IMG/VR virus record: IMGVR_UViG_3300043775_002158
Coordinates: 1 to 64,000 of that record
Origin: a virus
Direction: 5' to 3' (one strand)
DNA: 64,000 nucleotides
Numbering within the stretch: the stretch's first letter is position 1; every line of letters starts with the position of its first letter. This document shows positions 1 to 62,535 of the stretch, piece by piece. Made by a program: the position numbers and the translations under genes. Below the pieces are notes generated by a model. The model searched no databases. It had not been told where the DNA came from and saw only the letters and a program-made list of their open reading frames with translations.

Positions 1-179
1 ACTTGCCAAGCCATTTTTTGGATTACGTTCAAGGTCTCCTCAACGAAAACAATTCCGTTGGTTGTGGTTATCTTTGTTCCAACAATACCACTTTTCATAT
101 CAGTATCCATATAGATAGATACGATTTGGTCAACGTTTATTAATGTGGGTGTACCTCGGTGTGTTAATTTAATTAACAT
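1..179 (-). CDS. partial hypothetical protein, FlbD-like small beta protein (runs off window)
   Basis: Hand translation from ATG at 179: MLIKLTHRGTPTLINVDQIVSI...TKITTTNGIVFVEETLNVIQ, resembles the FlbD-like pattern. Confidence 0.55.
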   Translation of the reverse strand, partial: MLIKLTHRGTPTLINVDQIVSIYMDTDMKSGIVGTKITTTNGIVFVEETLNVIQKMAWQ

Positions 180-13675: not shown

Positions 13676-13677
13676 AA

Positions 13678-16616: not shown

Positions 16617-16618
16617 AA

Positions 16619-34020: not shown

Positions 34021-34024
34021 ACAT

Positions 34025-34633: not shown

Positions 34634-34634
34634 T

Positions 34635-35719
<1,085 letters not shown>

Positions 35720-35723
<4 letters not shown>

Positions 35724-41817: not shown

Positions 41818-41851
41818 TATCTTAGGTCGAAAACTCAAAAAAGTCGAAGTG

Positions 41852-42247
41852 TGGAGACGAAGGGAGTCGAACCCTTGTCTTTCCTGTTCAACAATAAATG
41901 ACTACACGTTTATTCAATTGGTTCTCAATTGACAAATAGAAGGTTAATTACAGGAAACCAACAATACTGTCCCTAACCGGATTTTCATGAGCCGTCAAGT
42001 TTGCTCCAACACTCTTGGGTGGTGTTACACCGTAAGGACTTCTGTTCCAAGGTTATATGTCCGTCGACCCGTGCGTAGAGGCTAATCTAATTAGGCTGCT
42101 ACTTTAGAAGTTGCAAGTAAACCTGCAATTTCCATTGTGTTGTAAACGTTGTCGTTTAATTTTCTTCACCGTGGATTAAAGTCATAGATGAATTCTGACT
42201 ACGTGCCATTTACCCCTGATACCTGAAATCAAATCCAAGGCGTCCCC
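41852..42247 (-). ncRNA. ssrA: tmRNA
   Basis: 5' GGGGACG pairs with 3' CGTCTCC-A including G3:U; T-arm AAGGG-TTCGACT-CCCTT; tag frame 42153-42091 DNVYNTMEIAGLLATSKVAA*; TATATTTG promoter at 42261-42268. Confidence 0.93.
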
Positions 42248-42567: not shown

Positions 42568-43260
42568 TTAAGAAATTACTAAAGGGAGATTTTTATCAAA
42601 TAACGCCTCAAAAAATAGTTTATTCTTTTCCCATTGTTTATTGGTCATACCTACCGATTTATGTGTGACCCCAAATTTGGTAGTTAGACCAATCTTAACC
42701 CCTTCTAATTGATTTTCAACACAGAACGAAATATCATAAAAATGGAACCCTTCAAACTGTTCATTAAATTCTTTCTTTAGGAGACTTTTACGGACTATAA
42801 AGAATAAACCGTCCACAATTACAACATCCTTAAGAACATCGTTAAAAACACCCTTAGAATAGTGATTAACGTGTCTTTTACCCTCATGGATATGACCAAC
42901 CACTCCAAACATATTTTCACGGTTTTGCCACCACATTCCACTTGTTAATTTATCTGTTCCAGCAATACCAATAATTCCGTATTCAGGATGTTTCTCAAAT
43001 AACTTAACAATCTTAGGTGTCATATTGGGTGTCTCCAAAATAAGATCATCGTGCATGAAAACAACGATATCATTAACACTTTCTTTTAACCCTTTGTTAT
43101 AGACTTGGGTTAATGACATTTGACCGTCATTTTCATACATCAATATTTCTGTATTCGGATGAGAAAACATTCTTTTCACATGATCGTAATATGTGGGATC
43201 AATCTTTCTCGTGGATATTACAACACTTACCATTTCATTATTCTTCGACATATATTGCAT
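42568..43260 (-). CDS. GT-A glycosyltransferase-like protein
   Basis: SLTQVYNKG, VFMHDD, GIIGIAG, VDGLF, FHFYDISFC. Confidence 0.8.
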   Translation of the reverse strand: MQYMSKNNEMVSVVISTRKIDPTYYDHVKRMFSHPNTEILMYENDGQMSLTQVYNKGLKESVNDIVVFMHDDLILETPNMTPKIVKLFEKHPEYGIIGIAGTDKLTSGMWWQNRENMFGVVGHIHEGKRHVNHYSKGVFNDVLKDVVIVDGLFFIVRKSLLKKEFNEQFEGFHFYDISFCVENQLEGVKIGLTTKFGVTHKSVGMTNKQWEKNKLFFEALFDKNLPLVIS

Positions 43261-47120: not shown

Positions 47121-47393
47121 TTAATATATTACATTTTTATCTTCTTCCGTTAATAAATTTGGACCGAGATCAAAATTACTTTGTCTTCTTCTTGCCTCTT
47201 CAGCCTCTCTATACCAACGAATCCATGTTAACGATACGTCAATCGGTGCTAATACCCAAGCCATCATTATTACCATAATAGTATCTAACTCAGGTGAACC
47301 TCCTGTTGGGTCGTTAGAATACCTTTTGTCCAAATTTTTAAACAACTGATATAAACAATAAATAACACAAATAACATAATAACCTACAAACAT
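47121..47393 (-). CDS. small membrane protein
   Basis: Start moved to ATG 47393 (MFVGYY) because the longer ORF overlaps tRNA-Glu; two hydrophobic segments. Confidence 0.65.
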   Translation of the reverse strand: MFVGYYVICVIYCLYQLFKNLDKRYSNDPTGGSPELDTIMVIMMAWVLAPIDVSLTWIRWYREAEEARRRQSNFDLGPNLLTEEDKNVIY

Positions 47394-47407
47394 AATTTTA
47401 AATTTAG

Positions 47408-47479
47408 TATTCCCGACGGGATTCGAACCCGTATTACCTCCGTGAAAGGGAGGTGACCTAACCATTAGTCGACAAGAAC
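47408..47479 (-). tRNA. tRNA-Glu (TTC)
   Basis: Cloverleaf; anticodon arm CCTCC-CTTTCAC-GGAGG; T-arm ACGGG-TTCGAAT-CCCGT; CCA not encoded. Confidence 0.92.
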
Positions 47480-47596
47480 AGATCCCGTTTTTTTTCTACA
47501 TTTAGCCCAAACACCAGTAGATCAGTATTTTGGGTTTTGACGCGAGAAGTCTACAAGGTTTCCCCATTAGACCGTTACCACGGGCAAACTCTACAG

Positions 47597-47684
47597 CGGA
47601 GAGAGTAGGATTCGAACCCACGGGCCAGTTTCCCGGCCTCCTGATTTCAAGTCAGGTGCAATAGACCAACTCTACCATCTCTCC
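47597..47684 (-). tRNA. tRNA-Ser (TGA)
   Basis: GGAGAGA/TCTCTCC acceptor, CCTGA-CTTGAAA-TCAGG, long variable arm, discriminator G. Confidence 0.95.
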
Positions 47685-47878
47685 GTTGACACCTTTATTT
47701 ATCCAACTCACAGGTGTCTTAGCTGTCCCCTTTCGGGTTAGGAATAATCATTTCGTCCTCACGAGGTCGGGGTGATGTCCCCTGACGTTCTTCCTATACG
47801 TCAATGTACGTTTCCATATGGTTGTCAAACCATTTCTCATCATATTGGACATACTATTCGGTGACTAACCGAATCGTG

Positions 47879-47952
47879 CGGAATGTACGGGACTCGAACC
47901 CGTGGGCTTCTCCGTGACAGGGAGACATGATAACCAACTTCACTAACACTCC
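47879..47952 (-). tRNA. tRNA-Asp (GTC)
   Basis: GGAGTGT/ACATTCC, TCTCC-CTGTCAC-GGAGA, TTCGAGT loop. Confidence 0.95.
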
Positions 47953-47958
47953 GTTTTG

Positions 47959-48034
47959 TGGGTGAGTTTGGATTCGAACCAAAGACCTAAAGTTTATGAG
48001 ACTTTTGCTCTAAAACCAGCTGAGCTACACACCC
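47959..48034 (-). tRNA. tRNA with CAT anticodon (Ile2 more likely than elongator Met)
   Basis: GGGTGTG/CTCACCC acceptor, AAAGT-CTCATAA-ACTTT; not initiator-like. Confidence 0.88.
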
Positions 48035-48126
48035 TATTAGTCTTTTCCTTACCTCTTAATAACCACATTGCCATCCCGGTGTTACTGCCGGGTGCTTACC
48101 ACTTGCGTGGAGTGATTATCACGTTG

Positions 48127-48199
48127 CGCTCCCTGAGGGTCACGATCCCCCGACTTCAAAATTAACAGTTTTGCGCTCTACCAACTGAGCTAAGGAAGC
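48127..48199 (-). tRNA. tRNA-Asn (GTT)
   Basis: GCTTCCT/AGGGAGC, CAAAA-CTGTTAA-TTTTG; atypical T-loop ATCGTGA. Confidence 0.88.
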
Positions 48200-48461
48200 G
48201 TGTTTGATTCCAACCCAACTTAAGTTGCACCATCCGTGTCATGCACTGGTTAACAAAGTCCTCGTTGAGTTAGTTTCAAAAAGTTACAGGTTTTTCGTAC
48301 CATCTATGTACATCATAACAGACATAGTCTGTGGTTACTTTTCGCTTAATGGTTAATTACTCCAACTTATAGTAACTCTACTCTCACCGTTCTACATCTA
48401 GATTCAAACGGATAGTTGAGATTCATAGACAGTGGGGTCACACCACCGTCGTCACCTGTTG

Positions 48462-48534
48462 AGCCCAAACTCAGACTCGAACTGAGGACCTAATCATTAC
48501 AAATGACTTGCTCTACCAACTGAGCTATCCGGGC
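48462..48534 (-). tRNA. tRNA-Thr (TGT)
   Basis: GCCCGGA/TTTGGGC, AGTCA-TTTGTAA-TGATT, CTCAG-TTCGAGT-CTGAG. Confidence 0.95.
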
Positions 48535-48669: not shown

Positions 48670-49185
48670 ATGACAAAAATAAAAGGACTCTCTCTCCTTT
48701 TATGTACTTTGTTCTTGGCATTCTCTTCATTTGCTCAGGACACACAAAAAGTGTACATATCTGGCGTTGAGAACAAAATTAAAATCGGACGTATGACGTC
48801 TAACCGAAACTTAGCTTTCGGAGTTAAAAACATTTTTGAAGAAATTTTACAGGATAAGGACTTCACAATCGTAGAGGTACGTAGTGAGGCTGACGTTTTA
48901 TTAAACGTTGATTTATTATTTTTTGACGTTAATAAAACTAAAAGAAACGTTTCAGTATTCCATTCTAATGTTGAAGAAACATTGGTAATAATGAAAGGTA
49001 CTATTACCGACAAATCAGGAAAAAAATTAAAAGAGGTGGTGGCCGAAGAATCAAGTTCAGAAATTTCTACATCAACGTTAATCACTGACGAAGGAAGTGG
49101 ACAAATAAACCAACAAGCATTGTCTTCCGCAATTAAGAAGACATGTGTTTTACTTGTAGATAAAATATTTTTAAATAAGAAATGA
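48670..49185 (+). CDS. exported CsgG-like/LptE-like alpha-beta protein
   Basis: Signal peptide SFA-Q; layout (LAFGVKNIFEEIL...ALSSAIKKTC.LLV) parallels 58128. Confidence 0.55.
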   Translation: MTKIKGLSLLLCTLFLAFSSFAQDTQKVYISGVENKIKIGRMTSNRNLAFGVKNIFEEILQDKDFTIVEVRSEADVLLNVDLLFFDVNKTKRNVSVFHSNVEETLVIMKGTITDKSGKKLKEVVAEESSSEISTSTLITDEGSGQINQQALSSAIKKTCVLLVDKIFLNKK

Positions 49186-50831
49186 AAAAACTAACATTAT
49201 TAATGGGATTATTTTTATTAATGTCCCTATCATCATTTGCCCAATTAACAATTAACCAATCTATAACTCCAACTACAGGTTTAAAAGTGGGAGATACATT
49301 AACGGTTAAATATACAATTAATAGAGGGGCAACAACACCTCGTTATTTTTGGTTAAGATACTCTTTTAATAATAAAGCATTGTCAATGGTGTCAAATAGT
49401 ACCACTTTTACACAAGGCAGTTCAACACAAACATTTTATACAGGTTGGGATAATTACAAATTTACACCGGCAGCAAATATTGTGGATACACAATTATATG
49501 CACAATATCAAGTTACACCTTGGGGATATGAGGTAAATTCTGATTGGAATGTTGGACAATTAACAATTCAAAGAGCCGACGCTTCAATTAATGGTGACAT
49601 TGCCACACAAAAATTTGTATTAAAAGACCAAAACACATATAATAATATTCATAAATTAGATTTGGCATATTCAATTAATGCAACAGATGAGTATATTTCA
49701 CCAATTACAAGAAGTTCAACAAACATATCTTTAACCAATGTGGTAGGTAACACATCTCAATTCAAAGTTAGAGTATTATTTCCACAAGGATATACAATTT
49801 CCGACCACAATGTTCAATTGATGAGATTAAAAACAGATGGTAGTGGTGATATTGATTGGTCACAACAACCAATCGCACAAAAAGCATTGGATGCAAGTGG
49901 TGAGGTAATATTCACATCGGGTGTTAAAGTCGGTGATAGTGTTGGTGTATTTGTATCTCCCGCTTCCCAAAAGACTTGGATGAACAACGTAATCACAGTT
50001 TCAGATGCATATAAAGCATTCTTAGGACACTCTCAAACTGATATTAGTGGAACGGCAAACTTCTTTACAAGACCTGTTTTAGAAAGAAAAATAGGTAATG
50101 TAACAAAAAACGATATGACATTTAACGAATCTGACTCATATAATTTATTTGCACACGTAATTGGACAAGATGTATCGGTAAACGCATTTATCCCAACATC
50201 AACTTCAACTTCTTGGAGATGGCATAGTGGTTTATTGAATCAAAGTTGGTTAGATGGTGTTACTAAGAATAGAGTATACATTACGGCTCCATCACAAACT
50301 GTTGATGCAGTATTTGCGTGGGGTGGTGATTTAAACTGGTCACACTCATCTCATCCTGACACAATTGCAACTAAAATTACACAAGGTAATTTCACAAACT
50401 CAATAAACGATAACAAATATCAATCATTCTCAGTAAAGTCGATGTCATATACTCAACCTACATTTGAAAAGGTAACTTTAGGAATTAACTCTACTTTGGA
50501 AAATGGTAAAGTTGTATTAACTACTACATTGACAAAAGAAGGATTGGCAGGTTTACAAGTTATAATGAATTATGACGAAAGTAGATTGACGTTGGATAAT
50601 GTAATATTTGATGCGGGAAGTACGATTACAAACTTCTCAACTCATAAAGATGGTAGATTGACATTTGGATCTATTGATCAATTAAAAACATCAAGAATTA
50701 AAGTAGGAACACCGTATAAATTAATTTTCACTCCTAAAGTTCAATTAACAAATACTGCCGGTTTATTCTTCTTTGTATTGGCGGATGCGGTTGATGGATT
50801 GGGTAAGAAAGTTGATTTGACAATAGAATAA
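49182..50831 (+). CDS. exported protein: cohesin/Ig-like + dockerin-like + cohesin-like domains
   Basis: Signal peptide; KVGDTLTV N-domain; ITVSDAY...GNVTKNDMTFNESDSY; LAGLQVIMNYDESRL...GRLTFG. Confidence 0.6.
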   Translation: MKKLTLLMGLFLLMSLSSFAQLTINQSITPTTGLKVGDTLTVKYTINRGATTPRYFWLRYSFNNKALSMVSNSTTFTQGSSTQTFYTGWDNYKFTPAANIVDTQLYAQYQVTPWGYEVNSDWNVGQLTIQRADASINGDIATQKFVLKDQNTYNNIHKLDLAYSINATDEYISPITRSSTNISLTNVVGNTSQFKVRVLFPQGYTISDHNVQLMRLKTDGSGDIDWSQQPIAQKALDASGEVIFTSGVKVGDSVGVFVSPASQKTWMNNVITVSDAYKAFLGHSQTDISGTANFFTRPVLERKIGNVTKNDMTFNESDSYNLFAHVIGQDVSVNAFIPTSTSTSWRWHSGLLNQSWLDGVTKNRVYITAPSQTVDAVFAWGGDLNWSHSSHPDTIATKITQGNFTNSINDNKYQSFSVKSMSYTQPTFEKVTLGINSTLENGKVVLTTTLTKEGLAGLQVIMNYDESRLTLDNVIFDAGSTITNFSTHKDGRLTFGSIDQLKTSRIKVGTPYKLIFTPKVQLTNTAGLFFFVLADAVDGLGKKVDLTIE

Positions 50832-50834
50832 TTT

Positions 50835-53423
50835 ATGAAGAAACTATTAGTAGTATTATTTTTATTTATATCATTTTTAGGGTTTGGTCAGTCGGTTTTG
50901 GCACCAGACCCTAAGTCATTTATTGTTAATACCACAGGACAAGATGCAAGTGGGTTTGAGTTAACTGGATTTAATTCAACCGCAACTTTATTAGCATCGG
51001 TGAGTTTAGTATCACCACCAGCAGGAACAACATTCTATTTAAACACTTACACAGGTCTAACCGCAGCAAGTGGTTTCAATATGATTGGTAATAAAACTAA
51101 ATTGGTGTTTACCGGAACAATGGCAAATATCAATACGGCATTGGCATCATTAAAAATTAACACAGGTTCTATTTCGGGTGATATTGTCATATCAGTCGCA
51201 GCAACTATAAATCCAACTGGTTTCTTTTACAATGGAACAAACGGACACTTTTATAGACCAATATCAACAGGAACAAGCTATACGGGTGCAAGAGCAGCGG
51301 CATTAAATACTACATTTAAAGGACAGACTGGATATTTAGTAACAATAACTTCGGCAGATGAAGATGCGTTTGTATTTAATAATGTACCACAAACAAACAT
51401 TTGGTTTGCACTAACGGATGAAGAAACAGAAGGCCAATGGAAAATTGATGCTGGTCCTGAAAAGGGAACTTTAATCAAAACATCAAACGGACAAACTGCG
51501 GGTAATATACAAGGACAGTACAATAACTGGGCACCTGGTGAACCAAACAATAGTGGTAACGAAGATTATGCGGTAACAAAATGGAACGGTTCTCAATGGA
51601 ATGATTTACCGAATGGATTTAGTTGCCCTTATGTAATTGAATATGGAACTTGGACCAATCCTGATGATGCAACATTTACCGAATTTTATACTAACAGTGT
51701 AGTTCATTCAAACGGAGAAACAATAAAAGCATTATTCAATTTTACATTTGGTGGAGCAACTGATAAAAGTAAATTTTCAGCAAGATTATTTAATAGAAGC
51801 GATGCGACATCAACATGGGTAGCCGGTGGTTCTTATAAATCATTAAGTGGATTGGGTAAAGTATATCTTTCAAATCAAATAGATACTGCAAAGATATTTT
51901 CAACCGCAATTCAATTAACGCCGGGTACAAATGATATGACACAATTTAGTTCTGCTGATATTGGTAAGGTCTATAAACTAACAACAACTGGAGCAAGTGG
52001 TGGTGGATGGGGAACGGACATTTATACAAGTGACTCTTATATACCCGCTATGGCAGTTCACGCAGGAGTTTTAACAATCGGACAAACAAAAGAAATTTAT
52101 ATTAAAATAGTTGAGGGAAAAAGTAGTTATTTAGGTTCAACCCGTAATGGAATCACAACGTCAGAATGGGGTGGATGGGGATTGAGTTATCAATTTGTAT
52201 CTCAACCATCTTCATACAAGGCAATATCATCACCTGGCCAAGTTGAATGGTGTGTGATATATGACTACGATGCATCAAATCAAAGATATAGAGTTGGGAT
52301 TGATAAGAGAGAATTTGATGGAACCAACGTATCACCAAATAATGTATCATCACTAAAATTATTTGATTTGTGGGATGGAAATGTAACATTTGATAGTGAA
52401 GACATATATTGGGCAAATTATTGGATTAATACACCAACCCAATTTAATTTTACGGGTTCATCATTTTCATCATTTATAAGACAAGGCAATGGATTTTACG
52501 GAGTAAGTAGTGAGTTTACCTTTTCACAATTAGGTACATACAAACAACACAAAATGGAATTAAATGAATATGATAATGTACAATTAAAAACATTATATAA
52601 TAACATTGTAACAGTATCGGATGTTTATTTGGCATTTAAGGAATTATCTAATAAGGGTTTATTTGGTAATCAAAGTGGTAATGAATTTGGATATGGTATT
52701 CAATATATAAATGCAGATGTGGATGATAATGGTGTATTCAATGAAGTGGATACATATAAATTATTACAAAATTTAACGGGTGTAAATGATTTAGTTAGCA
52801 GTTATACTTTGGATAATACTATAAAAGTAATTCCAGACTCAATCTATAATTTAATTGGTAAATCAACATGGAGTTCATTTACATCATACAAAGGTAAATC
52901 ATATTCATTTAGTTTATTGGATAATGTGTTGAATTACAATTACAATTTATCTGTGAGTTGGAAAGGTGATGTGAATTTATCACATTCAGCAACACCTCCT
53001 TCAAATGGTATAACAACAATGTCGGTTAGAACATCAATGAGTACACCGATATCAAACGAAATAAATTCATCAATTATGTCCGAAATTGTGGGAGATAGTG
53101 TTTATGTATATATTACAATAGACCCATTACAACAAGAATTGGTGGGGACACAGTTTAAGTTAAATTACGATAATGATTTATTAAAGTTTAATAATGTAAT
53201 ATATAAAACAAAAGGATTACCAACTAACTATGCGACGGACAAAGGGAATTATATTAATTTAGGTTCTCTAATAACGGATGGTGGAACTTTAGATAATACC
53301 ACTGAATATAAATTATCATTTACAACAAAAACAAAGTTGGAGAATATATTCGGTTTAATTTCGGTTGGGTTAATGGATGCAGTAAACAAAAGTGGTAGAA
53401 CATTAAAAGTAATAATGAAATAA
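50835..53423 (+). CDS. exported adhesin: C-type lectin + LCCL + dockerin-like + cohesin-like
   Basis: NGHFY...GYLVTITS.DE...WAPGEPNN...WNDL; WGTDIYTSDS..AMAVHAG..YLGSTRNGI; ADVDDNGVFNEVDTY; LVGTQFKLNYDNDLLKF. Confidence 0.8.
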   Translation: MKKLLVVLFLFISFLGFGQSVLAPDPKSFIVNTTGQDASGFELTGFNSTATLLASVSLVSPPAGTTFYLNTYTGLTAASGFNMIGNKTKLVFTGTMANINTALASLKINTGSISGDIVISVAATINPTGFFYNGTNGHFYRPISTGTSYTGARAAALNTTFKGQTGYLVTITSADEDAFVFNNVPQTNIWFALTDEETEGQWKIDAGPEKGTLIKTSNGQTAGNIQGQYNNWAPGEPNNSGNEDYAVTKWNGSQWNDLPNGFSCPYVIEYGTWTNPDDATFTEFYTNSVVHSNGETIKALFNFTFGGATDKSKFSARLFNRSDATSTWVAGGSYKSLSGLGKVYLSNQIDTAKIFSTAIQLTPGTNDMTQFSSADIGKVYKLTTTGASGGGWGTDIYTSDSYIPAMAVHAGVLTIGQTKEIYIKIVEGKSSYLGSTRNGITTSEWGGWGLSYQFVSQPSSYKAISSPGQVEWCVIYDYDASNQRYRVGIDKREFDGTNVSPNNVSSLKLFDLWDGNVTFDSEDIYWANYWINTPTQFNFTGSSFSSFIRQGNGFYGVSSEFTFSQLGTYKQHKMELNEYDNVQLKTLYNNIVTVSDVYLAFKELSNKGLFGNQSGNEFGYGIQYINADVDDNGVFNEVDTYKLLQNLTGVNDLVSSYTLDNTIKVIPDSIYNLIGKSTWSSFTSYKGKSYSFSLLDNVLNYNYNLSVSWKGDVNLSHSATPPSNGITTMSVRTSMSTPISNEINSSIMSEIVGDSVYVYITIDPLQQELVGTQFKLNYDNDLLKFNNVIYKTKGLPTNYATDKGNYINLGSLITDGGTLDNTTEYKLSFTTKTKLENIFGLISVGLMDAVNKSGRTLKVIMK

Positions 53424-53446: not shown

Positions 53447-54130
53447 ATGGCAGACAGAAACGGAGACGGAGTTGTTTATCATCGCTCAGATTGTGGTGAT
53501 AATTATGTAAGATGGTATGGGTTCGGTGGAGATGGACCTTGTTCGGCGTGTGATACGTGGGGACTTACCAATAAAGCAATAAGATATATTCATGACCACC
53601 CTGAAATAAATCATAGACTTGAAGATGTGGTAGGTAGAGAGTGGGATGAAGAGGTTATGCCAGTATTAACAGAGGTTTATGAAGAAGTAAAAGAAGGTGT
53701 AATAGACGCATATAATTGGGTGGACGCAAACGCTTGTAATATAGCTGTAACAGCAGCAATCTCGGCGGGAGTTGTTTACGCATTCACACCAGAACCGGCA
53801 AACCCAACAGCGGTGGCAACATCAACTACTTTATCGGCAATGGCATCAACTATTACTAATATGGCAGTTAAAGTTGCGGTAGTAGGAGAAATGAGTGAAA
53901 TTATAACAAATGGATTTTTACTAATACCATTTGTAAGTGATAGTATTGACCACACTCTATTATACAATATAATTTCAAATTGTTTAGCTAAAAGTTTAGA
54001 TTCTGCGGAGTTATGGGCAACACCAGCCGGTGTTGGTATTGCGATTGGAGCAGCAATTGCACCTGTTATTGCGGATTTGATATGTAAAAAAACTTGTCCT
54101 GAAGGATTTACTAAAGCATTTGGTGCGTAA
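53447..54130 (+). CDS. hypothetical protein with hydrophobic Ala/Gly-rich helices
   Basis: No signal peptide; Cys-containing N-domain; AGVGIAIGAAIAPVIA. Confidence 0.7.
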   Translation: MADRNGDGVVYHRSDCGDNYVRWYGFGGDGPCSACDTWGLTNKAIRYIHDHPEINHRLEDVVGREWDEEVMPVLTEVYEEVKEGVIDAYNWVDANACNIAVTAAISAGVVYAFTPEPANPTAVATSTTLSAMASTITNMAVKVAVVGEMSEIITNGFLLIPFVSDSIDHTLLYNIISNCLAKSLDSAELWATPAGVGIAIGAAIAPVIADLICKKTCPEGFTKAFGA

Positions 54131-55023
54131 TGAAAAAACTAATAACCATATTATTTTTACTTTGTGTAAGTTTTGTTACAAATGCACAAATACAAAAACC
54201 AGATACGTTACAACTATCGGCAAAAGAACTATTTGGAGAAAGTGATGATTGGAACGATGTGGGTATATTACAATCCTATGTTAATTTTTCAAAAGATGTC
54301 CTATCATCATCAAACCTTTCAATTGGTGTAATTGGAAAACAAGTATCTACAACTCTTAATTTGGGATATAATAAATCATCATTGAATGGGAAGTGGGGAC
54401 ACTCATTTGCAGCATCAATAAACCCTATTTGGAATTATTATGGTGTAGGGTATGGTCTTAGTAGAAATACCGAAAAGAGAACAACTACAATACAAACATT
54501 TTATTCTACGGACTTTGATTTCCAAAAAGATATTAACTTATCATTTATTGATGTATTCAGAACAAAAAAATGGGGAACATTCGGTTATAGTTTAACAGCA
54601 TCAAAATCATTTTGGGGAACTTATCAGGGTGAGTGGGAAGGGAAATATACGGTTGATGAAAATGGTGATTTTAAAGATTTAATATATCCAATGATACCGG
54701 CATCAAGTGAAATAAGTTATAGAGGTATGATGATGTACACTTATACATTGAAAACAAAGAGAGTAAACATCTCACCACAAATATTTGCAATGAGTGATGT
54801 ATATAAAGTATTTAAAGATGGAACTGAATCAGATTTGGCATATGTAGATGATTTCAATTTGGACTTATATTATGGTACATCTATTGATTGGAAAATAACT
54901 AAAAGATTTGTATTGAATACCAATGTTAGATATAATACAACTTGGGATAAATTAAGTGAATCAGTCGGTTATAAAAAAAGTAACCCAATAATGTTTATGA
55001 TAGGAACAAACTTTCAATTTTAA
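54130..55023 (+). CDS. putative outer-membrane beta-barrel protein
   Basis: Signal peptide TNA-Q; alternating amphipathic strands; C-terminal IGTNFQF. Confidence 0.7.
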   Translation: MKKLITILFLLCVSFVTNAQIQKPDTLQLSAKELFGESDDWNDVGILQSYVNFSKDVLSSSNLSIGVIGKQVSTTLNLGYNKSSLNGKWGHSFAASINPIWNYYGVGYGLSRNTEKRTTTIQTFYSTDFDFQKDINLSFIDVFRTKKWGTFGYSLTASKSFWGTYQGEWEGKYTVDENGDFKDLIYPMIPASSEISYRGMMMYTYTLKTKRVNISPQIFAMSDVYKVFKDGTESDLAYVDDFNLDLYYGTSIDWKITKRFVLNTNVRYNTTWDKLSESVGYKKSNPIMFMIGTNFQF

Positions 55024-55397
55024 TGAGTAAAAAAGATTTAATATCATTCATAGTAATTTATTTATTAACCACATTTGTAATATTATTTAGTGGTTGTAGA
55101 AAAACGCAGACTATTCCAACACCACCACCGATAAATAAAGAATTTTTTAATTCACCCGAAAACAACGTTAAAAATGGGGATATTATTAATTTTAATTTAA
55201 CTACAGTTGGTGTTTATACTTTGACAATGATTGATACGGTTCAAAATCAAGTTGTGACCAGAGAAAGATTTACGGGTAAAATTGGTTTAAACTCACTTAA
55301 AATATTTACAAAAACTTTACCGACAAAATACCTAAGTGTCGTTTTAAAGGATCAAAATAATCAACAGATAGGTAAAACAAGAATAATAATAAATTAA
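55023..55397 (+). CDS. lipoprotein with T9SS-CTD-like Ig domain
   Basis: Lipobox FSGC; YTLTMID...G..GLNSLKIFTKTLP..YLSVVL...KTRIIIN. Confidence 0.55.
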   Translation: MSKKDLISFIVIYLLTTFVILFSGCRKTQTIPTPPPINKEFFNSPENNVKNGDIINFNLTTVGVYTLTMIDTVQNQVVTRERFTGKIGLNSLKIFTKTLPTKYLSVVLKDQNNQQIGKTRIIIN

Positions 55398-55410: not shown

Positions 55411-55779
55411 ATGAAAAAAGTATCTCTCGTACTCTTCGGTTTGATTCTACTTGCTGGATGTAGAAAATCAGATTTTCCAACGCCACCTCAATCAGTTAGC
55501 GACGATTTAAAAATTGCTAGTTTATCAGGATTAAAATTACAAACTGCATTTGTAACAAGTGAAGTTTCAATGAACATAAAAAGTGAGACATCTCAGACTG
55601 TAACTATCAGAATCTTTGATATTGCAAATAGAGTAGTGTCTAAATCAACAAGCGACGTAAAGTCAGGTGATAATATATTGAAGATATACACTTCATCATT
55701 ACCGTCATCAGGTTATAGAATAGCAATTTACGATCGTGCCGGTAATATGTTAGGTATTACGGACTTTAATAAAATTTAA
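55411..55779 (+). CDS. lipoprotein with T9SS-CTD-like Ig domain
   Basis: Lipobox LAGC; VTIRIFDIANRVV...SGDNILKIYTSSLPSSGYRI...DFNKI. Confidence 0.65.
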   Translation: MKKVSLVLFGLILLAGCRKSDFPTPPQSVSDDLKIASLSGLKLQTAFVTSEVSMNIKSETSQTVTIRIFDIANRVVSKSTSDVKSGDNILKIYTSSLPSSGYRIAIYDRAGNMLGITDFNKI

Positions 55780-56217: not shown

Positions 56218-56826
56218 ATGGCTGATCAACAACCACCAAGTGGATTTAAAGAATTATTAGCAAATATGATGAAACGTAGATGGTTCATCACTGCAATTGT
56301 ATTAGGGGGATTTATGATAATCATAATGGGAATATTTGGGGCAATCCTAAATAAATCCGCTATTGAAGGAGAATGGAAAGAACTTCTACTATTGTTATTG
56401 GGTGCATTTATCGGTAGTTACGGTAAAATAATCGACTATTGGTTTAGTGATACTGATAAGGATAAAATGTTAGTTCAGAAAATGGATGAAGAAGATGGTG
56501 TATCGTTGAGTAATACTAACGATGGTCCAAATACTCCAATCGTACCAATGTCAATAGCACCATTAGTGTTATCAGAATCAACCGAACAAATAACCGAACA
56601 ATTAGTTGAAACACCAAAAGTAGAAAAGAAGGGTGTTGAAATCGATGAAGATGGTGACGGTGTTATGGATGGTTTAGATTTCGATGGTGATGGTAAAATC
56701 GATGAATATTTCGCACACAGACAATGTGAACACGTTTGGGGTGACTTAGACGGTGACGGAACAGAGGAGTGTTTGAAGTGTGGTAAAGTTAAGGATGAAT
56801 ACGCAGAAATGCATATGGAAGGATAA
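56218..56826 (+). CDS. two-TM membrane protein with DxDGDG Ca-binding repeats
   Basis: Two hydrophobic helices; DEDGDG, DFDGDG, DLDGDG; CEH...CLKC. Confidence 0.7.
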   Translation: MADQQPPSGFKELLANMMKRRWFITAIVLGGFMIIIMGIFGAILNKSAIEGEWKELLLLLLGAFIGSYGKIIDYWFSDTDKDKMLVQKMDEEDGVSLSNTNDGPNTPIVPMSIAPLVLSESTEQITEQLVETPKVEKKGVEIDEDGDGVMDGLDFDGDGKIDEYFAHRQCEHVWGDLDGDGTEECLKCGKVKDEYAEMHMEG

Positions 56827-57374: not shown

Positions 57375-58118
57375 ATGACAAAAAACGAAATATTATATAA
57401 TGTCGGTTTAACCGATAAAGTATATTCAGAACAAAAAGATATTGATTTTAAAGCACAAAGGTTAAAATTAATTAAATGGATTGAAGATAAAAAATCAGAC
57501 ACACAAGGATTTGTTGCAACGAAAGATAATACAATTTATATTGTGTGGAGAGGTAGTTCTTCTAAAAAAGATTTCCAAAACGACGCCTCTATCGATAAAG
57601 TTCCTTTTATTGAAGAAGGTGAGAAAGTTCATATTGGATTTAAAACCTGTTGGGATGCCGTAAAGGATGATACATATAAAGCATTAGATATTGCACTTAA
57701 AAACTTAGGTCAAGAACATTCAATAGATAATATTGTTGTTTGTGGACACAGTTTAGGTGCGGCAATTTCTACCTTGTGTGCATATGAAATCTATTCAATT
57801 TATAAATCAAATAAAATTATATGTTGTACCATAGGTAGTCCAAGAGTTGGTAATAAAATATTCAAACAAAACTTTGATAAATCACCAATTGAATCGTTAA
57901 GGATTGTTAACAATTTAGATATTGTAACTCGTGCACCAAATATTGGATATCACCACGTTAATACCGAATTACGTATTGATAGTGAGGGTAAAGTTAAAAA
58001 ATGGATGATTGATTGGCAAAGAGTTGGTGAATATCTTAAAGCCGTATTCACAGGTAAGACTGCGAAAGATCATATGACAAATAATTACATAAGTGCATTA
58101 AATAAATGGAACCCATAA
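57375..58118 (+). CDS. class 3 lipase
   Basis: IVWRGS, VHIGF, GHSLGAA, GSPRVGN, DIVTRAP, DH.TNNY. Confidence 0.92.
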   Translation: MTKNEILYNVGLTDKVYSEQKDIDFKAQRLKLIKWIEDKKSDTQGFVATKDNTIYIVWRGSSSKKDFQNDASIDKVPFIEEGEKVHIGFKTCWDAVKDDTYKALDIALKNLGQEHSIDNIVVCGHSLGAAISTLCAYEIYSIYKSNKIICCTIGSPRVGNKIFKQNFDKSPIESLRIVNNLDIVTRAPNIGYHHVNTELRIDSEGKVKKWMIDWQRVGEYLKAVFTGKTAKDHMTNNYISALNKWNP

Positions 58119-58127
58119 AAAAAATAT

Positions 58128-58847
58128 ATGAAAAAATTATTAATATTATTAAGTGTTTGTTTAGTAAGTCTTGTTGCAAATAGTCAAACAATAGGTAAAA
58201 CTAAGACAGAGGACTTCAAGGCGGACTTTGAAAAGAAAAAGGATATAAGTACTTACTTAGATTATGACGGACCTCAAATACCCGTTCAAATCCTTAAATG
58301 TGGTATTTCTGACGAAGTATATGAGATGTATCCAGAATTAAAGGAAAAACGTGTAGGTTTAGGTGTTGCTAATATCTCTATGGAATATCTTGAGAACTTA
58401 AACAGATTTAAATTTACTGAGGACAAGACAGAAATTAAGAATCGCATGGTAAAACAATTCCAAGCATCTCAAGCCGGTATTTCTGAGAACAAATTAGATG
58501 GTCGTGGTAAAATCAATTTGGCTAAGTATTTTGTAACTATCGAGTGTTATGATTATTCGGTATCTGAAGATGAAACTATCAACCTAAAAGACGGTATTAA
58601 AGATAATATGGTTACTCGTATTGGTTTACAAGTTAGATTTACTGACGCCGAGACAGGACTAGTATTTGCAGGTTCAGGTTTAGGTGAAGCTAAGACAACA
58701 AGAGAGTTGACTTTATTATCTGATGCAACTATCGACCCAATTAAATTTAATCAATCAACCATCAGTATCTCAACTAAAAAGGCGTTAGATATTGCGGTTG
58801 CTAACATTCTTGATAGAATGATTAAAAAAGGTATTTTCACAAAATAA
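58128..58847 (+). CDS. csgG: CsgG-family (curli assembly/transport) protein
   Basis: Signal peptide; GLGVANISMEYLENLNRFKFTE...AKYFVT...IGLQVRFTDAETG...G.G.A...KKALDIAV. Confidence 0.75.
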   Translation: MKKLLILLSVCLVSLVANSQTIGKTKTEDFKADFEKKKDISTYLDYDGPQIPVQILKCGISDEVYEMYPELKEKRVGLGVANISMEYLENLNRFKFTEDKTEIKNRMVKQFQASQAGISENKLDGRGKINLAKYFVTIECYDYSVSEDETINLKDGIKDNMVTRIGLQVRFTDAETGLVFAGSGLGEAKTTRELTLLSDATIDPIKFNQSTISISTKKALDIAVANILDRMIKKGIFTK

Positions 58848-59080
58848 TGAAATACGAAGTTGTTGATATTCCACAACCGGAAAATTGTGAAAAATGTACA
58901 CCATGTCTTAGACTTAGATTAATGGAAATGGGGTTTATTACGGGAGAAAGAATTGAATTTGGAGAAAGTAGATTAGGTTTATATATGGTTAATATATTAA
59001 CCGAAAATGACCATATCTCTTCGGTGGTTGCACTTAGACAAGAAGAATTGGATAGAATATGTTTAAAAGGGGTTTTATAA
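58847..59080 (+). CDS. feoA: FeoA-like SH3 protein
   Basis: RLRLMEMGFITGERI...VALRQEE. Confidence 0.75.
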   Translation: MKYEVVDIPQPENCEKCTPCLRLRLMEMGFITGERIEFGESRLGLYMVNILTENDHISSVVALRQEELDRICLKGVL

Positions 59081-59103
59081 CCCCTTTTTTAGTATTTATA
59101 TGT

Positions 59104-59283
59104 ATGGAAAAATTTTATAGAACATATGACGATAGAGTCTTTTTTGGTATTTGTAGCGGTTTGGGGGTTAGAACCAATATCGATCCTTTAGTTTGGAGAT
59201 TATTGTTTTTTTTCTTAATTTTTTCACCGGTACCAATAATAACAGGTTATTTATTAACTACAATTTTAACTAAAAGTGTATGA
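59104..59283 (+). CDS. pspC: PspC-domain membrane protein
   Basis: Start ATG 59104; FYRTYDDRVFFGICSGLG...IDPLVWRL. Confidence 0.85.
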   Translation: MEKFYRTYDDRVFFGICSGLGVRTNIDPLVWRLLFFFLIFSPVPIITGYLLTTILTKSV

Positions 59284-60107
59284 AAAAATTTTTATTAATC
59301 GTCGGTTTAATTTTAATTTTAACGTTATTTGTTTCAATAATGTTAAACGCTCAAGTAAGTTCTTGGAGAAATAATTCACAACAAAGAACAACCGCACCAA
59401 GAATTCAACCATCAACTCCACAAAGAAATGACGTTAGTCGATGGAGAACACAAACAGAACCAATTAGACCAGGTCAACCTATTCCAAATAGACCTTTAGT
59501 GAGAAGATGGAGAGGTGGGGGTGTAAATCCATATGGATTAATGTGGGGAAATTGGGGGTGGTATCAACCATACCCATATATTTGGTACGATGATTATGGA
59601 TGGAGACATAGAAGTGTAGTTCGTGTTTATGAAAATGGAAAAAGAGATACTGTTAAAAAGGAAACATATTATACTTTAGGTATTGGACATACAAATAACA
59701 ATCAAGCTTCTTTTTGGGGTGCTGTAGGTGGTAATAAAGGATACTTTATTGTTGATTACGTTATGACCTATGAAATTGATCGCAACCAATATTTTCCAAA
59801 TGGTAAAATTAATGAAGTTGATTTTCCGTTAAGTAAAAATGACTTTTTAAAAGAGGGTACATTATATCTTGGTGGAGGTAAGAGATTCGGTAAATTAGGT
59901 GTCCATGGAATGGTTGGATTTGGAAATGAAATTATTAGATACCAAGGTAAAGATGATTTAGGTGGTATTTCATTTCCTAAATCAAATTCAAATTTTACAA
60001 CATTTAAATTTGGTATTATAAGAGATTTCAAATTCTTCACATTAAAGTTAGATAGAGACCCAATAAGAAATTACAATCAAATATCAATTGGATTGAATAA
60101 TAAGTAA
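59280..60107 (+). CDS. exported protein: Arg/Pro/Trp-rich N-region + beta-barrel-like C-region
   Basis: Signal peptide LNA-Q; repeated VS(S/R)WR; Gly/aromatic amphipathic strands. Confidence 0.6.
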   Translation: MKKFLLIVGLILILTLFVSIMLNAQVSSWRNNSQQRTTAPRIQPSTPQRNDVSRWRTQTEPIRPGQPIPNRPLVRRWRGGGVNPYGLMWGNWGWYQPYPYIWYDDYGWRHRSVVRVYENGKRDTVKKETYYTLGIGHTNNNQASFWGAVGGNKGYFIVDYVMTYEIDRNQYFPNGKINEVDFPLSKNDFLKEGTLYLGGGKRFGKLGVHGMVGFGNEIIRYQGKDDLGGISFPKSNSNFTTFKFGIIRDFKFFTLKLDRDPIRNYNQISIGLNNK

Positions 60108-61555
60108 TGAAAAAAAATCTAATTGTTTTATTAATTTTATGTTTCATAGGTTTTAAATCATATGGACAAACATTTACACAAACATTTATTGATAAATGTA
60201 CAGGTGAAGTTAAAGTTGCAACAACAACTTATATAAGTGGTAATGCATTTGTATCTTTTTATAATCAAAGTAAAACATTCACACCTTTAGAAGTCCAAAC
60301 AGGACAATTACAATTATGGTTACAAACAACTTACGCAACATATAACTCGATGGCCTGTCCAACAAATCAGGTAGTTCAACAAACAATACAAAATACAGTT
60401 ACACAGGCGGCGGCAACCGCAGCAAGTAATGCAGCATCTTCGGCGGCAAGTAATGCGGCATCTTCAGCTGCAAGTAATGCGGCAAGTTCATCGGCATCAA
60501 CTGCGGCGAGTTCGTCGGCATCAACTGCTGCGAGTTCGTCGGCATCAAGTAGTTCCGCCGCAACATCAAGTTCAAGTACAACAACATCATCTAGTAGTTC
60601 ATCTTCATCTAGTAGTTCATCTTCATCTAGTAGTTCATCTTCATCTTCTGAATCAAAGACTGAGAGTAGTTCTTCATCATCGGAATCAAAATCTGAAACA
60701 AAGAGTGAATCAAAATCTGAAAGTAAATCAGAAGAAAAAAAATCAGAAAGTAAATCAGAAGAAAAAAAAGAAGAGAAAAAGTCAGAGGAAAAGAAAGAGG
60801 AAAAGAAAGAGGAAAAGAAAGAGGAAAAGAAAGAGGAGAAGAAGAAGGAAGAAAAAAAAGATAAAAAGGAAGATAAGAAAGAAAAAAAGAAAGGAGGAGT
60901 ATTAAATCCGATGTTAATTGCCTCAGATTATACTGTTGCTCAAAATGCGGATAAAAGTTTTGGTTCTATGTTAGGGTTGGGTTGGAGTAAATCATCATTA
61001 ATGGGTGACGAATCTTTTTCAGCAAATGCAATTATATGGAGTAACCTAAAACAATTTGCGTTAGGTGGTGGATATACCAAAATGGACTTTAGTGGTGGTA
61101 AATTAAATGCCATACATTCTTATGGTGTAACAACCGCATATTTGAATGGTAATTATATGGGTTTACTTGGTTATACTTACATTAAACCACATCCTAAATT
61201 TGGAACTTACGGATACAATATAGGTGTTGTAAATTTATTCATTAAAGATGAAAAAGGTAAATTTAATTATAGTGTTGTAAGTTCAGCTGTTGCATTTTGG
61301 ACTAAACCATATTCATATTCAAAGAAACTTTCAATATCACCTCAATTATTTGTTATGTCTTCACCATTATCTTATAATACAGTTACGGGAGTAAGTATGG
61401 TTAATAGACACGCAGGATATTTGGTTGGAGGTTCGTTTGATTATAAATTAAGTAAAAGATTTGGGTTTACTTTTAATTATAGAATGAACGGATCAACTCA
61501 ACCATATAGTCCTATTTTACATAACTTCTTGATTGGTAGTAGAATGACATTATAA
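60107..61555 (+). CDS. exported protein with Ser/Ala and Lys/Glu low-complexity stalk and C-terminal beta-barrel
   Basis: Signal peptide; AASNAASS repeats, poly-Ser, EEKK repeats; amphipathic strands to C-terminus. Confidence 0.7.
   Translation: MKKNLIVLLILCFIGFKSYGQTFTQTFIDKCTGEVKVATTTYISGNAFVSFYNQSKTFTPLEVQTGQLQLWLQTTYATYNSMACPTNQVVQQTIQNTVTQAAATAASNAASSAASNAASSAASNAASSSASTAASSSASTAASSSASSSSAATSSSSTTTSSSSSSSSSSSSSSSSSSSSSESKTESSSSSSESKSETKSESKSESKSEEKKSESKSEEKKEEKKSEEKKEEKKEEKKEEKKEEKKKEEKKDKKEDKKEKKKGGVLNPMLIASDYTVAQNADKSFGSMLGLGWSKSSLMGDESFSANAIIWSNLKQFALGGGYTKMDFSGGKLNAIHSYGVTTAYLNGNYMGLLGYTYIKPHPKFGTYGYNIGVVNLFIKDEKGKFNYSVVSSAVAFWTKPYSYSKKLSISPQLFVMSSPLSYNTVTGVSMVNRHAGYLVGGSFDYKLSKRFGFTFNYRMNGSTQPYSPILHNFLIGSRMTL
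60409..60890 (+). repeat. coding tandem repeats (24-nt AASNAASS units, 18-nt poly-Ser units, 12-nt GAGGAAAAGAAA units)
   Basis: Visible directly in sequence. Confidence 0.85.
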
Positions 61556-62046: not shown

Positions 62047-62535
62047 TTATTCGTCACCAATTGTACGATCCCATTTTGCTTTACGTTCTTCGGGGGATAA
62101 CATGTGTATTTCACTAATAGTGTGGTTAATTTGAACTCTTACACAAGTTTGGGGTAATTTACAATTCATCAAATAATTATTAATATAACCCATCATATTT
62201 GCCGCACCAATAGGGTTTGCTGAATGTACATATATCTGAGGTAATGGTATTTTTTCATTCATACTTTCACTAACCAAATAACGGCAACAATCCATACCTG
62301 TCCTTTCATTAATGTTGTTGTAATCCAACATATAATTATTTTTTACATTTGTATAATACTCAACCATCGCACCTTCACCTAAATCATGATCTAAGGATAT
62401 TAATTCAAATGTACCTAATCCATGTAATTTTATTTGTGCAACAAATTCGTCATAGTTTCTTACAACAATCCAATCTTCATCTACGGGAGTTCTTATATCG
62501 TCAAGGTATAATCTTAATCTTTTATTAATTTTCAT
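62047..62535 (-). CDS. cyclic-phosphate-processing receiver-domain protein
   Basis: LYLDDIRTP, ISLDHDLG, TGMDC, VHSANPIGA; adjacent to RNA ligase. Confidence 0.8.
   Translation of the reverse strand: MKINKRLRLYLDDIRTPVDEDWIVVRNYDEFVAQIKLHGLGTFELISLDHDLGEGAMVEYYTNVKNNYMLDYNNINERTGMDCCRYLVSESMNEKIPLPQIYVHSANPIGAANMMGYINNYLMNCKLPQTCVRVQINHTISEIHMLSPEERKAKWDRTIGDE

Follow-up and report, generated by a model that had tools for sequence, protein, structure and literature searches.

Can a bacterial virus make its own version of the coupling that holds cellulosomes together? Coupling by cohesin and dockerin has been described in cellulosomes, in amylosomes and, outside cellulosomes, in a small number of bacterial and archaeal systems. 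The question is raised by two neighboring open reading frames (ORFs) in a 64,000-nucleotide stretch of viral DNA, the first 64 kb of the 105,374-base IMG/VR virus record IMGVR_UViG_3300043775_002158 (completeness 32%, CheckV), hereafter called the window. A sequence-only reading of this DNA had proposed that the two products, here ORF1 and ORF2, are paralogs that each combine dockerin-like and cohesin-like modules and could polymerize head to tail into chains or lattices displaying lectins. Both frames are present as proposed, adjacent to one another on the plus strand:

49182 to 50831, plus strand: ORF1, 549 residues, mini-scaffoldin-like from fold searches with its AlphaFold2 (AF2) model (predicted local distance difference test, pLDDT, 91.1; predicted template modeling score, pTM, 0.74)
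50835 to 53423, plus strand: ORF2, 862 residues, lectin-headed, with the same dockerin-extension-cohesin tail

Structure prediction, an unbiased fold search and family-level sequence profiles all uphold the proposal that cohesin and dockerin folds occur in both proteins. We tentatively favor, at a confidence somewhat short of even, the interpretation that ORF1 and ORF2 form an exported, phage-made adhesin complex of the cohesin-dockerin type, multivalent and glycan-binding, in the host envelope; the binding itself is what we infer.

The two proteins share a C-terminal module of about 290 residues (ORF1 264-549 against ORF2 585-862, 26% identity, BLASTP E 9e-17), in which a dockerin fold, an extension of ~60-70 residues, a linker and a cohesin follow one another in the same order. 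In ORF1 this tail is preceded by a signal peptide, an N-terminal cohesin fold and a small beta domain. The motifs pointed out earlier were all recovered in their places, with VSD at 273-275, FNESDSY at 314-320, WGGDLNWSHS at 380-389 and NYD at 463-465 of ORF1 and VSD at 594-596, FNEVDTY at 635-641, WKGDVNLSHS at 709-718 and NYD at 777-779 of ORF2. Judged by alignment, these motifs are conserved and are not chance resemblances. Columns D19, F24, G34, E60, D62, G72, W102, W132, D135, S139, H140 and S141 are invariant in an 86-row alignment of the region before the cohesin (A2), which consists of 46 ORF2-type and 40 ORF1-type sequences and takes in 84 of 107 unique locus pieces (93% redundancy filter). 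The ORF1 family is represented by a separate alignment (A1) of 55 of its 138 matches, which is made up of most matches with at least 400 residues and of eight C-terminal fragments and on which the AF2 model of ORF1 was built. A1 omits all short fragments and seven longer matches, of which the PA14- or lectin-headed P0201, P0214, P0223, P0244, P0249 and P0254 were covered by a later domain scan and P0025 was not.

Cohesin folds are predicted at three places in the two proteins, one of them followed by a further small domain:

50457 to 50828, plus strand: C-terminal cohesin of ORF1 (residues 426-549), from fold search and profiles
53055 to 53420, plus strand: C-terminal cohesin of ORF2 (residues ~741-862), from hhalign and profiles
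49239 to 49748, plus strand: N-terminal cohesin-fold domain of ORF1 (residues ~20-189), from the VIA fold search
49749 to 49961, plus strand: small beta-strand domain of ORF1 (residues ~190-260), from the secondary structure of the model

Residues 426-549 of ORF1 superimpose on 6kgf_C with Z 14.4 and a root-mean-square deviation (rmsd) of 2.6 over 123 aligned residues (VIA), and cohesins also came out on top when the ORF1 model was searched against PDB with Foldseek (2vn6_A, E 5.3e-7; 5nrm_A with a template modeling (TM) score of 0.68 and rmsd 3.2 over 135 columns). Among PDB sequences, the A1 profile retrieves cellulosomal cohesins first (3l8q_A, E 2e-5), and Pfam Cohesin (PF00963) matches 34 of the 55 A1 members at E<=0.1, the best at 3.3e-10. 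The C-terminal domain of ORF2 is connected to that of ORF1 by profile comparison (A5 against A4 in hhalign, 98.7% probability, E 2.6e-16, 118 columns). The profile of the ORF2 tail, A5, retrieves the PDB cohesin 4ums_A at E 0.0028 and also the cohesin chains 5nrk_A and 5nrm_A, which carry the molecule name 'Endoglucanase' in the search and are the sixth ScaB cohesin by their entry titles. Pfam Cohesin is found in 27 of 49 ORF2 orthologs at E<=0.01, with four exceeding the cut-off of 24.1 bits, and passes the cut-off in the genomes of two of three near-complete relatives. According to these models the C-terminal domains have the cohesin fold, a nine-stranded beta jelly-roll, with that of ORF2 assigned through its hhalign match to ORF1.

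Two domains go beyond what the earlier reading had described, namely the N-terminal cohesin-fold domain of ORF1 and an LCCL domain in ORF2 that is taken up with the glycan-binding heads. Residues 20-189 of ORF1 align with 1g1k_A at Z 13.3 and rmsd 2.2 (131 of 143 residues), and most cohesin chains in the VIA search fall on ORF1 residues 17-192, dozens of them at Z 10-13. Chains from outside cellulosomes are among the matches of this domain (Clostridium perfringens 2jh2_B, Z 13.0; Archaeoglobus fulgidus 2xdh, Z 12.6), and C. perfringens 2vo8 matches the ORF1 model at Z 12.5. By sequence, hhalign related the N-terminal domain to the C-terminal cohesin with a probability of 0.2%, its profile retrieved antibody noise and no cohesin from PDB, and the sole support comes from one relative, P0159, in which Pfam Cohesin matches positions 31-151 with 25.2 bits. 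ORF1 is a protein with two cohesin-fold domains flanking a dockerin, the N-terminal one at the level of its predicted fold. As it has this second cohesin-fold domain at the N-terminus, ORF1 resembles a small scaffoldin.

The shared tail opens with the putative partner module:

52596 to 52820, plus strand: dockerin fold of ORF2 (residues ~588-662), from AF2, VIA and Pfam
52716 to 52751, plus strand: second F-hand of the ORF2 dockerin with a complete calcium loop, D628-D639, from loop composition
49971 to 50171, plus strand: dockerin-like helical core of ORF1 (residues ~264-330), from homology to the ORF2 dockerin

When an AF2 model of ORF2 578-742 (pLDDT 80.1, last 19 residues disordered) was compared with 48,161 PDB representatives in VIA, ranks 1-11 were all dockerins (Z 5.5-3.4, rmsd 2.1-4.0), led by 4fl4_A (Z 5.5, rmsd 2.1, 59 of 68 residues aligned), and the first unrelated chain followed at Z 2.7. 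The dockerin rows align 49-64 residues of chains that are 56-138 residues long, apart from 8x39_B, which aligns 80. Ten single-dockerin rows map to model positions 11..87, corresponding to ORF2 ~588-664, and the double-dockerin 8x39_B at rank 9 covers positions 12..156 including the extension (Z 4.2, with trimming of low-pLDDT residues off). The C. perfringens chain 2ozn_B reaches Z 2.2. The dockerin core of the ORF1 model has helices at 273-284, 298-305 and 316-327, and a duplicated helix signature, S/V-D-x-Y-x-x-F/L, is present twice in the dockerin core. Pfam Dockerin_1 (PF00404) matches 36 of the 86 A2 rows at E<=1 (best 1.5e-4) and three of 49 whole ORF2 orthologs at E<=0.01. No dockerin came up when profile A2 was searched against PDB sequences, the output being CD2 noise (E 0.19-0.66), and the PDB dockerin 5m2s_B appeared in sequence search at E 0.09-0.26 only. 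We accept the dockerin fold, in which a linker helix connects two small F-hand segments, on the basis of the models; membership of the Dockerin_1 family is unproven at the curated threshold.

The coupling had been expected to depend on calcium, as it does in cellulosomes. All 46 ORF2-type sequences carry a full calcium loop, D-x-[DN]-x-[ND]-G-x-F-[ND]-E-x-D, in the second F-hand only (D628, D/N630, N/D632, G633, F635, N/D636, E637 and D639 in ORF2); in the first loop, ligand positions 1, 3 and 5 are taken by K/N, L and N/S. The 40 ORF1-type sequences have a second loop with V/I at position 1 and K/N/L at position 3, and a first loop that is degenerate as in the ORF2 type. The pattern of a canonical type I dockerin, a duplicated segment of ~22 residues with a 12-residue calcium loop in either copy and ligands at positions 1, 3, 5, 9 and 12, was not found. 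Judged by the loop residues, the ORF2 dockerin has at most one calcium site and that of ORF1 probably none. Calcium-dependent coupling is thus possible at most for the ORF2 dockerin, whereas the ORF1 type lacks calcium ligands in both loops.

Between dockerin and cohesin lie two further segments, which can be delimited as follows:

50172 to 50381, plus strand: post-dockerin extension of ORF1 (residues ~331-400), with the invariant motif W380-S389 at 50319-50348
52821 to 53000, plus strand: post-dockerin extension of ORF2, with the invariant motif W709-S718 at 52959-52988
50382 to 50456, plus strand: flexible linker of ORF1 (residues ~401-425; pLDDT 51-60 at 401-420)

The extension matches no known module. 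In the models it is well predicted and packs on the dockerin, and 45-50 residues past the dockerin core it contains W-x-G-D-[VL]-[ND]-x-S-H-S, in which the W, D, S, H and S positions are invariant in all 86 A2 rows. The sequence-only reading was right that this motif is present in both proteins, although it lies in the post-dockerin extension and not in the dockerin core or the cohesin.

The heads that would give such proteins their binding specificity are found in ORF2:

51240 to 51656, plus strand: C-type lectin domain of ORF2 (residues ~136-274), from Pfam Lectin_C and phmmer against PDB
51540 to 51548 and 51597 to 51605, plus strand: lectin motifs EPN (residues 236-238) and WND (residues 255-257), in ORF2 only
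52008 to 52178, plus strand: LCCL domain of ORF2 (residues 392-448), from Pfam PF03815

A lectin with EPN and WND motifs had been described, and this is borne out; it sits on ORF2 alone. Lectin_C (PF00059) matches residues 164-267 with 29.9 bits against a cut-off of 22.6, and phmmer retrieves CD23 (8e-6) and mannose-binding protein (2.2e-5) from PDB, as well as langerin, SP-D and mincle, which like mannose-binding protein are lectins of the EPN type. Residues 136-274 contain one cysteine (in GFSCPYV), and the two disulfides of the canonical animal C-type lectin-like domain are absent. In C-type lectins EPN marks a preference for mannose, N-acetylglucosamine (GlcNAc), fucose or glucose, and by analogy the ligands of ORF2 are expected to be sugars of the mannose, GlcNAc or fucose type. 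The LCCL match (43.1 bits against a cut-off of 22.6) covers only profile positions 37-92 of 96. Heads were counted in 49 of 52 unique complete ORF2 orthologs, with L030, L032 and L060 omitted as near-copies of L029 and L058; Lectin_C occurs in 43 and LCCL in seven, and two have PA14 instead. The lengths of ORF2 orthologs group at about 640, 760 and 860 residues, and farther relatives place PA14/GLEYA heads on the same tail. As read from these sequences, the family combines a constant tail with exchangeable glycan-binding heads; in relatives the lectin is followed by another middle part, or PA14 forms the head.

Export is suggested by the N-termini of both proteins:

49182 to 49244, plus strand: signal-peptide-like N-terminus of ORF1 (residues 1-21; MKK, a hydrophobic stretch and SFAQ)
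50835 to 50891, plus strand: signal-peptide-like N-terminus of ORF2 (residues 1-19), read from sequence

Each has an n-region with K/R, a hydrophobic core and (S/T)F(A/G)Q, a pattern that related N-termini share in similar form, and all 52 unique complete ORF2 orthologs pass a test for K/R plus a hydrophobic window, which is a simple heuristic and not a signal-peptide predictor. ORF1 and ORF2 thus appear to be exported through Sec. Similar N-termini are found on the neighboring products o48670, o54130, o58128, o59280 and o60107, and a lipobox on o55023 and o55411.

The pair is a stable feature of a phage group. Gene order o48670-ORF1-ORF2 is kept in 68 of 68 related viral loci, and the two lipoprotein and two membrane-protein genes that follow ORF2 are usually retained, while o54130 is present in 22 and o53447 in seven of the 68. 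In each of the three near-complete relatives the A2 profile finds exactly two dockerin modules, both in the ORF1 and ORF2 genes, and Pfam Cohesin matches no gene beyond these two. The count per phage is two dockerins and three cohesin folds, with no further module of either kind turning up. ORF1 had no match among 50,697 GenBank phage records, and PHROGs contained no family for ORF1, ORF2 or five neighbors. The family is abundant in metagenomes, where ORF1 relatives form 138 representative clusters among 1.84 billion and the ORF2 tail alone retrieves 2,312 proteins at E<=0.01. Among relatives, tail identity ranges over 38-99% for ORF2 and 62-98% for ORF1. A mirror-tree comparison was restricted to loci with at least 80% coverage of every one of ten modules, 48 of the 68 (42 unique); the best non-adjacent pair was the ORF1 dockerin (Doc1) with the ORF2 cohesin (CohC2), at a partial r of 0.32 over the 42 unique loci, and the adjacent ORF2 dockerin (Doc2) and CohC2 gave a partial r of 0.60.

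Relatives of ORF1 and ORF2 are carried on viral contigs of up to 339 kb, and the three near-complete ones measure 274-324 kb with a completeness of 97-100%; the genes belong to an uncultured jumbo phage of ~270-340 kb. The host is probably a member of the Bacteroidota, and Flavobacteriales are suggested because of the (S/T)F(A/G)Q-type signal peptides, a lectin match in the Flavobacterium phage immuto and a match in a metagenome-assembled genome (MAG) of Schleiferiaceae. The last of these, L071, is the sole dockerin-module match in the species genomes scanned (56% identity) and lies on a 3.4-kb contig; it may be phage DNA binned with its host and is a weak pointer to that host.

Under the interpretation that we favor, infection would lead to export of both proteins into the host envelope, where ORF1 and ORF2 would join via cohesin-dockerin contacts. 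ORF1 would provide the scaffold or anchor and ORF2 the adhesin, the part that varies, and the joined proteins would make up a multivalent glycan-binding complex. Long chains or lattices, as proposed earlier, could result but are not what we consider likeliest; short oligomers are another possible product. With two dockerins and three cohesin folds, a closed heterodimer is equally possible, and cis self-capping or docking to host proteins would likewise fit the anatomy as well as self-polymerization does. A complex prediction for ORF1 421-549 with ORF2 578-727 gave ipSAE values of 0.23 and 0.30 (mark 0.32) in a run made without controls, and is no evidence either way.

Several observations weigh against such a complex. 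The window proteins ORF1 and ORF2 themselves have no Pfam Cohesin or Dockerin match at E<=1, and in no relative does Dockerin_1 score up to its cut-off of 22.9 bits (best 19.3). With a Z of 5.5 the dockerin match in VIA is modest, and with Foldseek no row passed E<=0.001, the top ones being dockerins at E 0.39-8. Calcium ligands have been lost in most loops, and the modules are therefore non-canonical and might not bind cohesins. The most conserved element of the tail, W-x-GD-x-N-x-SHS, is outside both known modules and unexplained, and the ~25-residue linker seen in the model would let the dockerin bind its own cohesin in cis. The Doc1-CohC2 correlation is a weak lead, being mosaic and confounded by linkage and shared ancestry. 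Models of the type IX secretion system (T9SS) gave no match to ORF1 or ORF2 at E<=1 (NCBIfam, including TIGR04183), and no route across the outer membrane was identified.

Some of these points feed a different explanation, which we consider unlikely, though it survives best among the alternatives. The dockerin-extension-cohesin tail might be one cis-folded targeting or anchoring unit and not a coupler between proteins, and it could be recognized by the outer-membrane barrels or lipoproteins of the surrounding island or, in the way of a C-terminal sorting domain, by the host T9SS. T9SS cargo is laid out like this, with a Sec signal in front and a tail at the very C-terminus; the best structural match of ORF1 among viral proteins, A0A6J5M064 (636 residues, E 1.1e-22), bears the name 'Secretion system C-terminal sorting domain'; and Por_Secre_tail matches the neighbor o55411 below threshold (19.3 bits, cut-off 27; NCBIfam E 0.0098). 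A unit of this kind would also fit the concentration of conservation in the extension motif and not at known cohesin-dockerin contact sites, the cis contact that a flexible linker allows, and the co-variation of Doc2 and CohC2, two modules of one protein, which is the strongest observed, though the two are adjacent. However, the C-terminal domain matches cohesins specifically, with cohesins in all top rows, and in addition to the negative T9SS searches Por_Secre_tail (PF18962) is absent among the 55 A1 members and among 18 relatives of another scan. The N-terminal cohesin fold of ORF1 would also be left without a role.

It seems improbable that the phage dockerins and cohesins instead dock onto cohesin- or dockerin-bearing surface proteins of the host, so that the phage places its lectins on an existing host scaffold or takes that scaffold over. 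Cohesins and dockerins outside cellulosomes are widespread among cellular lineages, chains of A. fulgidus (2xdh) and C. perfringens (2jh2, 2vo8, 2ozn) are among the PDB matches, and the wider divergence of the ORF2 tail relative to that of ORF1 could follow host variation. Yet the module is nearly absent from cellular genomes, with L071 as the one locus in those scanned, and the strict co-occurrence of exactly two dockerin modules with cohesins in each phage favors an internal partnership over host docking. Least probable of all is that ORF1 and ORF2 are virion parts (fibers, or capsid or tail decoration) in which a cohesin-dockerin pair attaches Ig-like, lectin and PA14 domains for adhesion to the host or to particles: phage receptor-binding and decoration proteins typically exchange their glycan-binding heads while the tail stays constant, as the ORF2 orthologs do, BFVD matches include tail and fiber proteins (E 1e-4 to 1e-3) and phage immuto has an annotated C-type lectin protein, but conserved, cleavable-looking signal peptides are found on both proteins and four or more neighbors, the island encodes lipoproteins and predicted outer-membrane barrels with no recognizable virion genes, and neither protein has a PHROG match.

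If ORF1 and ORF2 do form a cohesin-dockerin complex, it would resemble a scaffoldin and its cargo in its working, and would differ in several respects from known ones. Cellulosomal scaffoldins such as ScaA of Acetivibrio cellulolyticus (3l8q) and CipA of Clostridium thermocellum (3kcp/4fl4) have cohesins and a dockerin on one polypeptide, and ORF1, as modeled, likewise puts two cohesin-fold domains and a dockerin fold on one secreted chain. It also shares their flexible linkers rich in S/T/P/N, and their PDB entries are among its best sequence and fold matches. Unlike scaffoldins, ORF1 and ORF2 are encoded by a phage with a probable Bacteroidota host and not by a cellulolytic Firmicute; they lack enzymes, carbohydrate-binding modules (CBMs) and an anchoring module (surface-layer homology, SLH, or sortase); and the ORF1 dockerin has no calcium ligands and is followed by a conserved C-terminal extension. 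A setting outside cellulose degradation is shared with the glycosidase and toxin complexes of C. perfringens (2ozn, 2jh2, 2vo8, 2w1n) and with the A. fulgidus cohesin (2xdh), although those systems are cellular and ORF1 and ORF2 are viral. A. fulgidus reportedly has two neighboring proteins that each combine a cohesin and a dockerin, and surveys of non-cellulosomal cohesins and dockerins are said to include proteins with both modules. The elaboration of a dockerin core by an extra segment recalls the Ruminococcus flavefaciens ScaA dockerin (clasp or insert), in which the clasp is said to be stabilizing, and the double-dockerin 8x39, but unlike these the extension of ORF1 and ORF2 has its own invariant W-x-GD-x-N-x-SHS motif.

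T9SS cargo of Bacteroidota resembles the two proteins in its N-terminal Sec signal, adhesin-like middle and C-terminal beta-sandwich; here the C-terminal domain is, unlike that of such cargo, of the cohesin type by fold search and profile. Among phages, the C-type lectin of Flavobacterium phage vB_FspM_immuto is 37.9% identical to ORF2 136-274 (E 6e-11), a match that spans 16% of ORF2, with no dockerin or cohesin tail matched there. A report on the amylase Amy4 of Ruminococcus bromii (PMC4611034) describes a cohesin and a dockerin on one protein, the cohesin binding its own dockerin, and proposes and partly shows multimerization by self-recognition. By that account Amy4 and the phage proteins are alike in having both modules on one exported protein; Amy4 is a bacterial amylase of glycoside hydrolase family 13 (GH13) with measured binding, whereas here the putative coupling joins two paralogs, with lectin heads in place of an enzyme. 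By a term search, a report on large aquatic 'moraphages' with predicted Flavobacteriia hosts mentions neither a lectin nor a cohesin (PMC12619734). Among the papers listed, our literature search gave no report of a phage-encoded cohesin-dockerin pair, and dockerins go unmentioned in the jumbo-phage papers listed. Set against known systems, ORF1 and ORF2 stand apart in being viral, in having lectin, LCCL or PA14 heads in the place of enzymes, in their degenerate calcium sites and extension, and in having no known anchor.

The two genes are part of an island of genes for exported proteins, which starts with the gene directly upstream of ORF1:

48670 to 49185, plus strand: o48670, 171 residues, signal-peptide-like, with a stop that overlaps the ORF1 start (ATGA)

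No family was found for o48670. Downstream of ORF2, o53447 (53447-54130; 227 residues) has a cysteine-rich start and a hydrophobic C-terminal half and is flanked by ORF2 and o54130; the relative L003, which is 97-99% identical, has it after o55411, at 13234-13914, and it looks like a small island-mobile gene. The product of o54130 (54130-55023; 297 residues, signal peptide, ending in NFQF) is paralogous to the C-terminal ~200 residues of o60107 (60107-61555; 25% identity, E 4e-6), a protein that also has a long Ser/Thr-rich stretch followed by a Lys/Glu-rich one of low complexity. The nearest named neighbors of o54130 in the protein atlas, a lead only, are outer-membrane barrels (autotransporter, OmpG-like), and o54130 and o60107 are therefore probably phage-encoded outer-membrane barrels. 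Two small lipobox proteins (55023-55397 and 55411-55779) are kept downstream of ORF2 in nearly all loci, and the second of them, o55411, also shows sub-threshold similarity to DUF3244 (E 8.4e-4). The membrane protein o56218 (56218-56826) has two hydrophobic segments and an acidic C-terminus with D-x-D-G-D-G-type repeats and C-x-x-C; its acidic region looks calcium- or metal-binding by sequence. As a candidate third dockerin it was rejected, with no Pfam Dockerin or EF-hand match at E<=10, and its orthologs were unmatched by the A2 profile in the three near-complete genomes. A class-3 lipase is encoded at 57375-58118, and 58847-59283, within the island, encodes small proteins that are FeoA-like (24.7 bits) or have a PspC domain (51.7 bits). 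A CsgG-like reading of the island proteins found no sequence support (Pfam at E<=10, BLASTP of o48670 against o58128, phmmer of o58128 against PDB).

The minus strand directly upstream of the island carries six tRNA genes at 47407-48534, for Glu, Ser, Asp, Met, Asn and Thr; a listed ORF at 47121-47465 overlaps the start of tRNA-Glu and over that part is probably not a gene. A transfer-messenger RNA (tmRNA) gene lies at 41851-42247, with a tag that ends in ATSKVAA, and at 62047-63595 on the minus strand a T4-type RNA ligase adjoins a cREC_REC (cyclic-phosphate processing receiver) protein, which may be an RNA-repair pair. The window also encodes HNH endonucleases, endolysin-like genes and a glycosyltransferase cluster. 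This cluster consists of six sugar-metabolism genes at 30211-35723, namely a GlcNAc-transferase (PF11397), glycosyltransferases (GTs) of GT1-like, GT25 and GT11 (fucosyltransferase) families, an FkbM methyltransferase and a UDP-galactopyranose mutase, and elsewhere in the window there are a GT2 (42568-43260) and, at 15813-17377, an epimerase with a PfkB kinase. With these genes the phage may make or alter a glycan that could be a ligand of its own lectin.

What would such a system mean? If the two proteins do assemble, the pair could supply a new, possibly calcium-independent, orthogonal cohesin-dockerin combination for protein engineering. At its most far-reaching, and we think this doubtful in the extended form, the phage would remodel the surface of a Flavobacteriales host with a self-assembling, cellulosome-like kit, a multivalent sugar-binding layer of ORF1, as a scaffoldin with two cohesins, and ORF2, with its swappable heads, delivered or anchored by the barrels and lipoproteins of the island; if that were true, the infected cell would adhere to algae, to other cells or to particles rich in glycans, or would capture phages that compete with its own. 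If ORF1 and ORF2 assemble at all, the product would be an adhesin complex that a virus makes and exports and whose lectin heads can be exchanged, and this would bear on how large aquatic phages change the surface behavior of the Bacteroidota that they infect.

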